A DNA stretch of 64,000 nucleotides from Eubacteriales bacterium (GCA_045531455.1 JAZSEA010000112.1:16196-80195); one strand, 5' to 3'. Positions 1,871 to 6,883 are shown, counted from the first letter of the stretch. The notes: generated from the sequence alone by a model not told the origin. A program made the numbers and translations.

Positions 1871-1910
1871 AAAAGTTGATCCATCGGTAAATCGATGGAT
1901 CAACTTTTTT
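1871..1910. terminator. Bidirectional intrinsic terminator
   Basis: AAAAGTTGATCCATCG-GTAAAT-CGATGGATCAACTTTT inverted repeat between convergent genes. Confidence 0.85.
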
Positions 1911-3118
1911 TATTCCGTCGCCTTGAAGTTGTATATAGGCTTGATACGGCAGACGATCTCTGCGGTGGGAGTGATATTTAAGACAATTTCTTCAATGCTC
2001 TTGTAAGCCATAGGCGACTCATCAAGCGTGTCGGGAACGACACAGGTCGAGTAGATTCCCTTCATCTGTTCGGTATATTCCGCCATTGTGAGACGTTCGA
2101 ATGCAGTTGATCGCGACATGAGTCTGCCTGCCCCGTGAGGCGCGGAAAAATTCCAATCCGCATTGCCCTTTCCCATACAGAGAAGCGAACCGTCGCGCAT
2201 ATTGATGGGGATGAGAAGCTTTTCATCCTTCTTTGCCGAGACCGCACCCTTGCGCAGTATCATTTCGTCGATGTCGATGTAATTGTGAACCGTGTGAAAA
2301 GCTTCTTGAGCTTCAAGCCCTGTTCGTTCGAGCAATATTTCCGCCATACGCTCGCGGTTTCGCTTTGCAAATCTCTGGCAGATATCAACGTCGTGGAGAT
2401 AGTCCTCCATAAATCTGCCGTGGAGGTAGCAGAGGTCTTCGGGAAGCGTGGGCTCCTTTGCCTCCCATTCCTTTTCCATAGCCTTGAGAGTCTCCTGAAT
2501 CTCGCTTCTGCGTCCCGCCTCCTTGTAGGTGCGGATGATCTCTTCGCGTCGGTTGAAATAATCTTCCTTTCCGATGTTGAGATCGACGGCAAGCGACTGA
2601 TAATAGTCTGCGACCTGCGTGCCGAGATTTCGGCTTCCCGAGTGGATGACGAGATACTTATTGCCCTCGTCATCCTCATCGATCTCGATAAAGTGGTTGC
2701 CGCCGCCGAGCGTGCCGAGGCTTCGCTCGAGACGCTTTGCGTCTCTGAGGTATCTGTAGCAGCGAAGGAGAGTGAGATCGAATCTCTCGTTTCGCCCCTC
2801 CCAGACGTCTCTGCCCGAGGGGATGAAATGCGCGGCTTCGTCGAACTTTTCAAGGTCAATATCGACCTTGCCGAGCGCGACCGTGTACATGCCGCAGCCG
2901 ATATCAACGCCGACCATCGCGGGAACGATCTTGTCGGTTATAGTCATGGTCGTGCCGATCGTGCATCCCTTGCCCGCGTGAACGTCGGGCATTATGCGGA
3001 TCCTTGAATCGGAAAATTCCTCCATGTCGCAGACGGTTCTGATCTGCTCGATCGCGCCGTCTTCGATTGTATTTGTATAGCACTTGGCAATGTTGTGCTT
3101 GCCTATGATTTCAATCAT
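1910..3118 (-). CDS. rtcB: RtcB family RNA 2',3'-cyclic phosphate/5'-OH ligase
   Basis: MPDVHAGKG, VGVDIGCG, LGTLGGGNHFIE, IHSGSR, HNY, RKGA, HGAGR, DESPMAYK motifs. Confidence 0.96.
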   Translation of the reverse strand: MIEIIGKHNIAKCYTNTIEDGAIEQIRTVCDMEEFSDSRIRIMPDVHAGKGCTIGTTMTITDKIVPAMVGVDIGCGMYTVALGKVDIDLEKFDEAAHFIPSGRDVWEGRNERFDLTLLRCYRYLRDAKRLERSLGTLGGGNHFIEIDEDDEGNKYLVIHSGSRNLGTQVADYYQSLAVDLNIGKEDYFNRREEIIRTYKEAGRRSEIQETLKAMEKEWEAKEPTLPEDLCYLHGRFMEDYLHDVDICQRFAKRNRERMAEILLERTGLEAQEAFHTVHNYIDIDEMILRKGAVSAKKDEKLLIPINMRDGSLLCMGKGNADWNFSAPHGAGRLMSRSTAFERLTMAEYTEQMKGIYSTCVVPDTLDESPMAYKSIEEIVLNITPTAEIVCRIKPIYNFKATE

Positions 3119-3130
3119 AATGTTTCTCCT

Positions 3131-4717: not shown

Positions 4718-4724
4718 AAGCTTT

Positions 4725-5630
4725 TTATCTTAAATTTTGTATCTTTTGAGCCAAAAGCTTCTTTTTTATCAGATCAACGAAGCTGTCGGGAGCTTCTGCC
4801 TTGACGCGCGGGCCGAAGGAGAGAACGCGGATGACGATCTCCGACTCGTCCTTGTGGTCAAACTTGACGTGGAGCAGATATTCGTTCTTTCCGACCTTTT
4901 CGGCTCGCTTTTCAAAATGCGCAAAATGGAGCATACACCTCTCAAGCGCGTTGCGCTCGTTTTTGATCCGTAGAGTTACCGTATCATAGCGAACCTCGCG
5001 CTCGATATGACGGAAAGATTCGCCGCAGTAACCGACGGAACGGATCTTAGAGAGATTGATCGTATGCAGATATTTGCAGCCGTCGGTGATGAGACGGAAT
5101 TTGTCATCTTTTTCGGAGTATTCAAGACGCAGGGGCATACACTTGGCGTAGACCTCTTTGCTGTTCTTGTTGACCATATTGATCTTTATCGGCACTCCGT
5201 CGCGGATAGCGGAAAGGATGAAACGGAATCTCCTGATATACCCCTCGTCTCCGAAGTCGTCGCCGTCGCAGTATTTGTCGTAGAAGTAATAATCATCCGG
5301 AGTAAACAAAGGCTCAACGTCATCAAGACCTTTGAAGGAAACGCCGAAAAGCCTGACTCTCGGGTCGAGAGAGACCGCCTTTAGCCAGCTTTTTTGCAGA
5401 TTTGTCAGGGGAACTGTCGGCTTGTGCTTCAGAATCGTGCTCATATCGGGGCGGACGAGTTGCCATTTTCCGCTTTTGAGAGCGGGAAGGATAGTTGCCG
5501 CACTCTCGCCGAAAGCCTTTTCGGAGACGATCTTACGAAGCTCGCGTTCGTCGCTTTCGCCGTCAAGCAGCTTCGATATGATCTCGGCTACCGCATTGTA
5601 ATATGCGGAATAAAGCTCGCTGAATATCAT
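4725..5630 (-). CDS. WYL-domain protein (with WCX-like C-terminus)
   Basis: PLRLEYSEKDDKFRL...INLSKIRSV WYL-like core; C-terminal EIVIRVLSFGPRVKAEAPDSF typical of WCX; 4-nt overlap with upstream WYL gene. Confidence 0.82.
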   Translation of the reverse strand: MIFSELYSAYYNAVAEIISKLLDGESDERELRKIVSEKAFGESAATILPALKSGKWQLVRPDMSTILKHKPTVPLTNLQKSWLKAVSLDPRVRLFGVSFKGLDDVEPLFTPDDYYFYDKYCDGDDFGDEGYIRRFRFILSAIRDGVPIKINMVNKNSKEVYAKCMPLRLEYSEKDDKFRLITDGCKYLHTINLSKIRSVGYCGESFRHIEREVRYDTVTLRIKNERNALERCMLHFAHFEKRAEKVGKNEYLLHVKFDHKDESEIVIRVLSFGPRVKAEAPDSFVDLIKKKLLAQKIQNLR

Positions 5631-6883
5631 AATTCATCCTCCTTTATTCCGTACATTTTATACATTTCCTCAAGGTCGGCTTTGAATCTGTTTTCCTCGG
5701 TGCGGTTTGAAAAATCCATCTGCACGATACGGCAGATGAAGGTGCGTATCCAGGGAATGATCTCACTTGTTTCGCATACCGGGGCGGTAAATCGGTAGGT
5801 GGAGTCGTCGAGCTTTTCAACGGTGCCGTGCCGCTTTTCGCGGTACAGACGCTTTACTATGTAATCCTCGTTCGGGTCAACTTTTATTGTGAAAGTGACG
5901 GTCTCGATATGTTCCTTGCCGCGTTTTGTTCGGTTGGGAACGACGCCCCACATATTTCCCTGCATTTTGTCAAGCATCACTCGGAGCTCGTCGAAGCGCG
6001 GAGTTACATCCTCGAGCTTTACGTTTGAGAGATAATCAATGCGGAATGAGCGGAAGCAGTTGAAATCGGGATGATACGCGATCAGGTGCTGTTTGCCGTT
6101 TTGTGTGCTGATAAAAATGCGGAGCGGAATTATGCGATTGCGTCTCGGCTCGTCGGAGCGGCGGCTGAGGTTAGCGACCGTAATGACGCGCTTCTGCCTC
6201 ATTGCCGTAAAGAGCGAGGCGAGGACTCCGCTGTCCATCGCGCCGGTGATATAGTGATGCTTGAAGGCGAAGGCATTTTTGTGAGTCTTTGTTTTATCAA
6301 GCAGGAATGAGCCGATGACTCCGCAGGGTGCGGCTTCGGAATAAAAATCAAGAAGATCGTTATGATCCGAAAGCATAATATCTTCAGCGCGGCGGTAGAG
6401 CATTCGCTTTCCCTGCTTCTCGGCAATAATTATGCCCTCCTCGCAATATTCCTTCAGCTTTTTCCGCAAGGTCGATTCGTCGAACATCATGGGCGGATCG
6501 AAGTTGGATAAATAATCTTTGTCGATGATCTTTATGATCTCGGGGATGGAATAGGATACTTCGGGAGAGTGGAGAATATCGAATATGATAAAATGAAGGG
6601 TGATGTCTCCGTCTGTGAAGCTTTTTGATTTCCAGGCTTTATAGAAGGGATTGTGGCGCGAGGTGCGGCTGTCGATCGAGATGAAGACGTTCTTTCCCTC
6701 GGGAGTGCGGACGAAGCTCATGTGATCGCCGAGTATGCTTTCCATTCGGCGTCGCTCGTCGTCATATGAGCGTGCGCTTTTTTTGTTGTAGTCCTCGCGG
6801 CTCTTGAAGCCGTAGACGTAAAACTCGCGCATATAAGCGCGGATACGCTCAAAATTCTTTATCAGCTCGCTGTAAGAGGACAT
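5627..6883 (-). CDS. WYL-domain transcriptional regulator (wHTH + WYL + WCX)
   Basis: wHTH-like FDESTLRKKLKEYCEEGII; IIPLRI...HLIAYH...FRSFRIDYLSNV WYL core; EIIPWIRTF WCX motif. Confidence 0.85.
   Translation of the reverse strand: MSSYSELIKNFERIRAYMREFYVYGFKSREDYNKKSARSYDDERRRMESILGDHMSFVRTPEGKNVFISIDSRTSRHNPFYKAWKSKSFTDGDITLHFIIFDILHSPEVSYSIPEIIKIIDKDYLSNFDPPMMFDESTLRKKLKEYCEEGIIIAEKQGKRMLYRRAEDIMLSDHNDLLDFYSEAAPCGVIGSFLLDKTKTHKNAFAFKHHYITGAMDSGVLASLFTAMRQKRVITVANLSRRSDEPRRNRIIPLRIFISTQNGKQHLIAYHPDFNCFRSFRIDYLSNVKLEDVTPRFDELRVMLDKMQGNMWGVVPNRTKRGKEHIETVTFTIKVDPNEDYIVKRLYREKRHGTVEKLDDSTYRFTAPVCETSEIIPWIRTFICRIVQMDFSNRTEENRFKADLEEMYKMYGIKEDEL

Follow-up and report, generated by a model that had tools for sequence, protein, structure and literature searches.

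A WYL regulator pair, a tRNA-mimicking RNA and a vault-protein-like SPFH protein accompany RtcB in a predicted RNA-damage response locus of Clostridia

RtcB repair operons are widespread, and how they are switched on is poorly understood outside the proteobacterial systems governed by RtcR and sigma-54. Here we describe a locus in a 64,000-nucleotide stretch of DNA from an Eubacteriales bacterium (the window; GCA_045531455.1 JAZSEA010000112.1:16196-80195, coordinates counted from its first letter), in which two WYL-domain regulator genes, a structured RNA, an SPFH-protein gene and rtcB stand in a row. Several described systems come close to it. According to a preprint (bioRxiv 10.1101/312249), Salmonella Y RNAs lie inside the rsr-yrlBA-rtcBA operon, and some bacterial RtcB proteins are encoded beside a Band-7 protein and a predicted b7a-tRNA (a tRNA associated with band 7), an observation credited to Burroughs and Aravind (2016) and presented there as a prediction that had not been validated. 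As relayed by the same preprint, Burroughs and Aravind proposed that, next to RtcB, the Band-7 protein and its tRNA-like RNA correspond to Ro60 and Y RNA. A 2026 preprint (PMC13404743) cites their study for bacterial homologues of the major vault protein (MVP) and RNAs in RtcB operons, and PMC13086221 places the Pseudomonas aeruginosa SPFH gene PaFlo8 within an rtcA/rtcB/rtcR locus.

All five elements of the present locus are encoded on the minus strand and run WYL1-WYL2-RNA-SPFH-rtcB, according to the open reading frame (ORF) list, Pfam and a terminator scan. WYL1 (418 amino acids, 5627-6883) is followed by WYL2 (301 amino acids, a divergent WYL-WCX protein, 4725-5630), whose start overlaps the WYL1 stop by 4 nucleotides. 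Next come a structured RNA of ~366 nucleotides (4277-4642), the gene for a soluble SPFH/Band-7 protein (370 amino acids, 3131-4243) and, beginning 12 nucleotides past the SPFH stop, rtcB (402 amino acids, 1910-3118). An intrinsic-terminator-like hairpin of 17 pairs with a T run closes the operon (1870-1909). A first-pass annotation, made by a model from the sequence alone, had described five co-oriented elements in this order, with an ATGA overlap of the WYL genes, a 12-bp gap before rtcB and a terminator at the end, and each of these details is borne out. We think it likely that the locus comprises two transcription units, WYL1-WYL2 and RNA-SPFH-rtcB. Its core is a member of the Band-7/b7a-tRNA/RtcB system predicted in 2016, and the WYL pair would take the position that belongs to RtcR in the rtc locus of Pseudomonas. 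Beyond this anatomy, we favour, with reasonable confidence, a modular RNA-damage response locus in which the WYL pair would control the RNA-SPFH-RtcB unit. As far as the available descriptions go, what is shared with the predicted system is an RtcB gene that has a Band-7 protein and a non-coding RNA resembling tRNA next to it; what differs is that the RNA has a 5' domain and a rod and is not just tRNA-sized, and that the genome gives no RlaP match.

RtcB is identified by Pfam (E = 1.8e-59) and is encoded by a single copy in the genome from which the window comes, which is 97.7% complete. Its MPDxHxG, DIxCG, GxGNHF, HxGSRxLG and HGAGR motifs align with those of P. horikoshii RtcB (4dwr); we take these to be the metal-binding motifs and, for HGAGR, the one with the histidine role. 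A Pfam-profile search of the same genome gave no match to TROVE/Ro60 (PF05731), RtcA (PF01137), RtcR (PF06956), archease or RlaP (PF10127), which extends to the whole genome the lack of Ro60/TROVE, RtcA and RtcR that had been noted for the window. The nucleotidyltransferase RlaP is a frequent further component of Band-7/b7a-tRNA/RtcB systems and not a strict requirement. The P. aeruginosa rtc locus likewise embeds an SPFH gene with rtcB, but has RtcR and RtcA, neither of which is matched in this genome, where a sigma-70-type extended -10 promoter with a candidate WYL-pair motif is found instead. With rsr-yrlBA-rtcBA, the locus shares a tRNA-mimicking RNA within an rtcB operon beside a scaffold protein. 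Unlike the Salmonella Ro60/Y-RNA system, it has no TROVE protein and its RNA has no Rfam match, and the long stem is a local 3' hairpin rather than a pairing of the RNA ends.

The association of these genes was examined in loci collected by scanning species-representative genomes with the SPFH protein, which yielded 229 relatives, from which 80 loci were kept, nearly all from Clostridia metagenome bins and a few from isolates; linkage was counted from tblastn searches of the four window proteins onto these 80 loci. Of the 50 loci whose upstream flank reaches 3 kb or more, 45 have the WYL pair upstream and in the same orientation; of the 62 whose downstream flank is 2.2 kb or longer, 49 encode RtcB within 1 kb downstream of SPFH; and all four genes are present in 29 of the 42 loci with both flanks. 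A neighbourhood search of this kind had been proposed in the first-pass annotation, and it finds the four genes and the RNA to be conserved neighbours across the relatives' loci. Variations on the layout were also seen. At L013:7237-8109, a gene for a HIRAN-domain protein stands in RtcB's place after SPFH, and extra small ORFs lie between SPFH and rtcB at L037:7203-7811 (203 amino acids) and L030:7279-7827 (183 amino acids), both without a Pfam match, and at L053:2298-2696 (DUF4275).

Counting from the regulators gives a complementary picture. Relatives of WYL1, sought with a profile at E ≤ 1e-20, turned up in 27 of 400 genomes sampled evenly across the class. In 20 fetched WYL1 regions, for which same-strand downstream genes only were counted, WYL2 follows WYL1 in all 20, whereas RtcB is present in 10 and SPFH in 6. 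Both SPFH and RtcB come after the pair in four regions (L123, L125, L128 and L135), SPFH without adjacent RtcB in two (L127 and L131) and RtcB without SPFH in six (L119-L122, L124 and L126), while L134 has both genes on the other strand. These counts indicate that the WYL pair belongs to RtcB cassettes generally and that SPFH-RNA is one interchangeable module. One further arrangement, at L119:1748-6926 and also in L120 and L121, consists of WYL1-WYL2, a 491-amino-acid DUF2828/DUF7788/vWA protein in the SPFH position, RtcB and RlaP; we presume this cassette to be a variant with a Ro-like scaffold.

WYL1 is made up of an N-terminal domain, a winged-helix region (residues ~119-187), a WYL domain (~217-290) and a WCX domain (~328-382). 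Pfam places its WYL domain above the cut-off (E = 3.2e-07) and WCX below it (0.0045, weak), and comparison of its profile with the PDB returned weak matches to PafB and PafC (PafB chain 7p5x_AY, E = 0.01) together with an ArsR/SmtB-type helix-turn-helix (HTH) at residues 119-187. Of 25 WYL2 orthologues searched with Pfam at E ≤ 1, 24 match WCX and 13 match WYL. The AlphaFold2 model of WYL2 has a predicted local distance difference test (pLDDT) score of 83.7, and its best PDB fold matches by Foldseek are PafBC, DriD, BrxR and CapW (E 1e-07 to 1e-04), with PafBC and DriD, including complexes with RNA polymerase, at the top and a sequence identity of ~10-16%. The DriD and CapW structure entries among these matches are titled as bound to single-stranded DNA. 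A direct profile comparison of WYL1 with WYL2 (hhalign; probability 0.5, E = 0.12) was uninformative alone and was replaced by the Pfam search of orthologues and the fold search. By these sequence and model comparisons, both upstream proteins are PafBC/DriD-like WYL regulators, the assignment of WYL2 coming from its orthologue family and its fold.

The two proteins probably form a heterodimer. Their complex model reached an interface score (ipSAE, the interaction prediction score from aligned errors) of 0.90 against 0.47 for the best control; 58 of 80 solved complexes attain that mark, as do 2 of 110 mismatched pairs. The contacts are at least 92% in agreement across runs and the pLDDT of the partner is at least 87, although the PafBC complex has been solved, so that a pass by the model may reflect likeness only. 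Of the PafBC-like WYL heterodimer that the first-pass annotation had envisaged, the resemblance of each protein to PafBC/DriD holds, and the modelled complex supports binding. In common with PafBC, an actinobacterial activator that is heterodimeric or fused, and with DriD of Caulobacter, the pair has the HTH-WYL-WCX build (the HTH being recognized in WYL1 alone, by a weak winged-helix match) and adjacent overlapping genes, and a heterodimer is predicted by the model. It differs in its low identity to them, in an extra N-terminal domain of ~100 residues in WYL1 and in its predicted target, since PafBC and DriD control a DNA-damage regulon, whereas here a single RNA-repair promoter would be controlled, its motif being single in the genome. 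A nitroreductase gene (6918-7448, minus strand) lies 34 nucleotides upstream of WYL1 on the same strand, and because of this spacing and orientation the WYL genes may be co-transcribed with it.

Between the two units lies a candidate operator. We searched for the promoter motif in 81 sequences, several of those without it having no flank, and found the 21-base motif GTTCGCA(G/A)CTTTTTTTCCGTG in 67; its columns are invariant in an alignment of 43 loci. In the window it occupies 4675-4695 on the minus strand, at about -53 to -33 of the predicted start. A TAnnnT hexamer follows exactly 20 nucleotides after the motif in 63 of the 67 loci, with a spacing of 19 nucleotides in three and 21 in one, and of the 63, 44 carry TG at -15/-14, the mark of an extended -10 promoter. 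The corresponding conserved columns in the window form the extended -10 box TGGTAAAAT (4649-4657, minus strand), which predicts a transcription start near 4642. Within the genome the exact motif was found only at this locus, with no second exact copy that would point to a regulon.

The first nine bases of the motif are also the right arm of a terminator-like hairpin with a T run after WYL2 (4682-4717, minus strand; listed on the plus strand by the scan). The left arm of this hairpin falls, in most loci, inside the final WYL2 codons. Only 33 of the 67 loci have a left arm with 8 or 9 of its 9 bases matching. In the other 34 it matches at most 7 of 9, and in at least 11 of those only 4 or 5 of 9, with the motif unchanged in all of these 11. 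Pairing in the hairpin therefore cannot explain why the motif is invariant. The right arm and the T7-CCGTG that follows it do not vary although the proteins share only 41-71% identity, and the simplest reading is a sequence-specific site at ~-53 to -33. From gene linkage and the invariant promoter motif, we infer that the WYL pair, for which this is the candidate site, controls the second unit. Of the 'palindrome/promoter' in the first-pass annotation, the promoter stands, with its motif and fixed -10 spacing, and the right arm of the palindrome belongs to the invariant motif.

The same arrangement could be read as repression, in which the WYL pair, as a BrxR/CapW-type repressor, would sit on the motif over the -35 region, block an otherwise self-sufficient extended -10 promoter and leave on binding a ligand. 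The circuit would be unchanged except for its sign. Extended -10 promoters can function without a -35 box, the motif does lie where such a repressor would, TG is present in the 44 loci noted above, and BrxR and CapW, which are repressors, are among the fold matches of WYL2. However, fold and sequence comparisons alike rank the activators PafBC and DriD first, complexes with RNA polymerase among them, and the paired architecture fits PafB/PafC rather than BrxR and CapW, which are homodimeric. On balance, we judge repression unlikely, though it is among the stronger of the alternatives.

A second alternative concerns the role of the locus rather than its mechanism, and overlaps with the preferred reading of an RNA-damage response. 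The locus might be mainly a conflict system, serving as counter-defence against anticodon nucleases, ribotoxins or phage, which we regard as possible but doubtful. Such a role would suit WYL regulators, given that BrxR and CapW, by the titles of their structures, control defence systems, and it would suit both the patchy spread within the class and the modular make-up, with an SPFH or a DUF2828/vWA scaffold and with or without RlaP. The abstract of the 2016 proposal reportedly places RNA repair in biological conflicts. Its title sets the subject in the same context (Burroughs and Aravind 2016). The flanking genes, in contrast, are ordinary (nitroreductase, histidine phosphatase and metallo-beta-lactamase fold), with no phage or defence genes among those inspected.

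The first element of the second unit is a structured RNA. The 436-nucleotide gap between WYL2 and SPFH folds at -161.9 kcal/mol (z = -5.37), a stability reached by none of 100 shuffles, and contains two T-arm motifs of the GGTTCRAATCC type. Covariation was assessed on an unfitted MAFFT alignment (A1) of 43 of 62 extracted intergenic regions, the 19 left out being near-duplicates or longer than 650 nucleotides, in which near-invariant blocks alternate with variable parts. RNAalifold gave 48 pairs, and compensatory changes are seen in 39; adding a 10-bp basal helix found by eye gave 58 pairs, which were counted on this alignment. Pairing is possible in 89.4% of cells, compared with 71.1% in 500 shuffles, none of which reached the observed value, and with 34-46% when partner columns were slid. 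Changes on both sides occur in 49 of the 58 pairs, and there are 528 double-change cells compared with 178 expected. Helices 1 and 2 of the 5' domain are 98.8% and 98.4% paired, with the covariation of P2 visible in the alignment, and helices 4-8 of the 3' rod are 82.7-94.6% paired, 41 of their 44 pairs changing on both sides. The minimum free energy (MFE) fold of the window copy reproduces the covarying helices. On this evidence, the intergenic region encodes a structured RNA of ~366 nucleotides, with a 5' domain, a tRNA mimic of permuted layout and, on the 3' side, a long rod. The ~380-nucleotide structured RNA and the tRNA mimicry suggested in the first-pass annotation, which had asked whether the intergenic region is conserved, are both upheld by covariation, and the region is strongly conserved.

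All parts of the RNA are read on the minus strand. The 5' domain (4586-4632 in the MFE fold) consists of hairpin P2 (4618-4632) and helix P3 with a small hairpin P3a (4586-4615). An optional module (4516-4563) follows, with a hairpin, the first T-arm-like hairpin (4535-4549) and a hairpin bearing a 7-nucleotide anticodon-like loop (4516-4530). The tRNA-like core, delimited by a covariance model (R1), spans 4435-4517 and runs from a T arm with a UUCGAAU-type loop (4492-4508) through a loop-closed acceptor-like stem (4471-4491) and a D-like hairpin with a conserved GG (4458-4470) to a tetraloop hairpin (4444-4455). The 3' rod (4277-4414), defined by covariation and the MFE fold, is an extended, irregular hairpin whose internal loops are conserved (GGAUACCG at 4367-4374) and whose tip lies at 4330-4350, with the 10-bp basal helix closing it; a linker then leads to the SPFH ribosome-binding site (4251-4258). 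In the MFE fold, CUCUUUGG (~4565-4575), upstream of the first T-arm module, pairs with the SPFH ribosome-binding region (4244-4290), a predicted pairing that might occlude translation.

R1 was built from 35 of the 43 sequences, 8 being dropped because they lacked the core, had a truncated one or had one too divergent for alignment. With this model the core is detected in 64 of the 80 loci and in the window, always upstream of the SPFH gene (the 35 sequences that built it are among these); it also gave one partial match and one weak match on the other strand, and two of the missed loci have no upstream flank at all. The window core scores 65.5 bits (E = 3.1e-17) and is the sole R1 match in its genome. 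In loci with WYL genes and RtcB but no SPFH, only weak matches of 17-23 bits were obtained. On the R1-fitted alignment A6, which leans towards the model, 92.4% of core cells are paired compared with 72.5% after shuffling, and all 7 acceptor-like pairs covary; an earlier MAFFT alignment (A5), intended for the acceptor-like hairpin count, had columns out of register and was replaced by A6. The same order of T arm, closed acceptor-like stem and D-like arm, a circular permutation of tRNA, is reported for YrlA. By the order and covariation of its helices, the core here mimics tRNA in permuted order. It is not a canonical cloverleaf, since ARAGORN found no tRNA in the window gap, and its 'tRNA-Lys' and 'tRNA-Asn' calls in the gaps of 7 relatives were poor cloverleaves on the second T arm and were not used. 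Rfam, which should cover whatever Y-RNA-type families it contains, returned no family at E ≤ 1 in window positions 1-12000, and none at gathering score on the RNA in the loci of 9 relatives. At least two T-arm-like hairpins occur in 13 of the 43 aligned loci, and in the window copy the extra one lies in the optional upstream module.

Transcripts were sought in small shares of four metatranscriptome runs from one study, mapped to the locus at ≥90% likeness; the resulting contigs can show neither ends nor levels and give no more than a hint. Two contigs of a relative, from two of the runs, share an end at 4531, where the first T-arm module gives way to the next hairpin, and this end may reflect either RNA processing or a break in the assembly.

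The protein encoded next to the RNA was listed as an ORF at 3131-4288 (385 amino acids), and its real start is the ATG at 4243, behind a Shine-Dalgarno site, because relatives start there and MKKIIINE is the first conserved peptide. It is recognized as Band_7 by Pfam (E = 1.3e-30) and, by profile comparison with the PDB, as stomatin (E = 1.9e-22) over residues 137-341. The AlphaFold2 model (pLDDT 85.6) has two beta-repeat modules (residues 2-41 and 69-113), an SPFH core (136-282) and a long helix of ~60 residues (285-345). Foldseek matched it to stomatin, HflK/C, prohibitin, erlin and flotillin, the longest alignments being with the major vault protein (406-470 columns, E 8.5e-11 to 5.9e-08). 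No membrane segment was found, the highest Kyte-Doolittle mean over 19 residues being 0.97 and the N-terminus being taken up by the two repeat modules; for want of a hydrophobic segment, it is not a membrane slipin. Of the earlier label 'SPFH/slipin', the SPFH part holds, by Band_7 and stomatin, and the slipin part, which implies an N-terminal membrane anchor, does not. By its predicted fold, the protein is a soluble 'mini-MVP' resembling the vault protein. MVP repeat modules, an SPFH-like shoulder and a long helix are shared with the eukaryotic vault, and each protein is paired with a small structured RNA; the differences are that 370 residues and two repeats stand here against chains of ~800 residues, that there is no TROVE partner and that the likeness is one of predicted fold only.

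The position of the RNA invites a third alternative, that it is a cis-acting leader of the SPFH-rtcB mRNA, sensing for translation or stability, with no separate partnership with the SPFH protein. There is no terminator between the RNA and the SPFH gene, the last helix of the RNA ends ~20 nucleotides before the ribosome-binding site, and one relative's metatranscriptome contig covers 4168-4531, bridging the RNA and the coding start. Nevertheless, the RNA accompanies the SPFH gene even in the absence of rtcB, and its tRNA elbow (the T loop and the GG-bearing D-like loop) and the invariant loops of its rod resemble protein-binding modules. Nor does co-transcription exclude a free RNA, since Salmonella Y RNAs sit within the rtcBA operon, from whose rsr-yrlBA-rtcBA transcript they are processed. 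We therefore hold a purely leader function to be improbable. Weakest of all is the proposal that the palindrome is merely the intrinsic terminator of the WYL operon and that the pair regulates something else: the scan did call a hairpin and T run whose left arm is mostly within the last WYL2 codons, but a terminator needs pairing rather than a fixed sequence, and here the right arm with T7-CCGTG is invariant while the left arm is not, the distance to the -10 box is fixed and the motif occurs nowhere else in the genome, which leaves very little room for it.

The preferred reading, a WYL-controlled RNA-SPFH-RtcB unit, suggests the following course of events. The WYL pair would bind the 21-base motif, and its WYL domains would bind a single-stranded nucleic-acid damage signal, upon which the second unit would be switched on. 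Transcription from the extended -10 promoter would then yield the RNA, followed by SPFH and RtcB. The RNA would probably be cut out of the transcript and join the oligomeric SPFH protein as a ribonucleoprotein scaffold, acting as Ro60 and Y RNA do in Salmonella. RtcB would then seal 2',3'-cyclic-phosphate/5'-OH breaks in tRNA or rRNA. A bolder version, which we consider speculative and rather unlikely, is that the WYL pair senses RNA damage itself, in the form of broken RNA ends or tRNA fragments, as proposed for the CARF domain of RtcR, and that the RNA and mini-MVP form a vault-like cage with functions wider than helping RtcB, given that the module persists where no RtcB was matched. The tRNA mimic might in that case even be a sentinel, a substrate that feeds the sensor when it is cleaved. 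If this sensing were real, the pair would be the first case of a WYL transcription factor linked to damaged RNA and not to damaged DNA.

Several results weigh against the idea of a WYL-controlled repair unit. The window copy of WYL2 gives no Pfam match at E ≤ 0.01; the first-pass annotation had labelled both proteins WYL, which is confirmed for WYL1 by its own Pfam match and for WYL2 by family and fold, but not by Pfam on the window copy. The resemblance of the WYL2 model to BrxR and CapW, together with a motif over the -35 region, would suit a repressor as well as an activator, and the RNA, with no terminator before the SPFH gene, may act as a leader and not as a free RNA. Transcript evidence consists only of low-depth contigs of relatives, from one metatranscriptome study, that cover all four genes. 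Linkage is also incomplete. The WYL pair is missing in 5 of the 50 loci with sufficient upstream flank (L004, L010, L030, L078 and L080), and no RtcB lies beside SPFH in 13 of 62, so that the linkage is not obligatory. In 7 of these 13 the next gene was scanned: six are unrelated (HIRAN, spore photoproduct lyase, HTH_3, AraC/GyrI, MatE and a sigma-54 activator) and one has no Pfam match. We searched five genomes lacking an adjacent RtcB and found RtcB elsewhere in two, including the genome of L073; in the other three (L068/G401, L075/G403 and L006/G405), one of which (that of L068) is recorded as complete, no RtcB was matched anywhere, although the WYL pair, RNA and SPFH are present. Because the module persists in genomes without detectable RtcB, the RNA-SPFH pair cannot be only an RtcB cofactor, and the WYL-RNA-SPFH module may work without RtcB or with another ligase.

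The first-pass annotation knew of no characterized system with this combination of parts. The core was in fact predicted in 2016 and is not new, whereas the searchable literature yielded, among the papers listed, none on WYL-pair control of an RtcB operon, and it gave none on the full size of the RNA and no experimental study of b7a-tRNA or of RtcB with SPFH. What looks new, as far as the literature is searchable, is thus the PafBC-like WYL pair with an invariant candidate operator that would replace RtcR, and the full architecture of the RNA. The locus represents a compact and widespread version of the system in gut Clostridia, with a candidate operator of 21 bases, a WYL sensor that is likely heterodimeric, a covariation-supported RNA and a vault-protein-like partner. 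It could reveal the RNA-damage signal of Firmicutes, the role of tRNA mimics in repair and whether cages of the SPFH/MVP type with RNA are ancient.

On the other flank of the locus, two plus-strand genes (1132-1866 and 17-1114) encode a histidine phosphatase and a protein of the metallo-beta-lactamase fold. Finally, an unrelated 17-mer, TTCGCATCTTTCTGTCC, is identical at 8 places on different contigs of the genome (for example, G000:C6:38539-38555 and C22:25642-25658) and is probably part of a repeated element.

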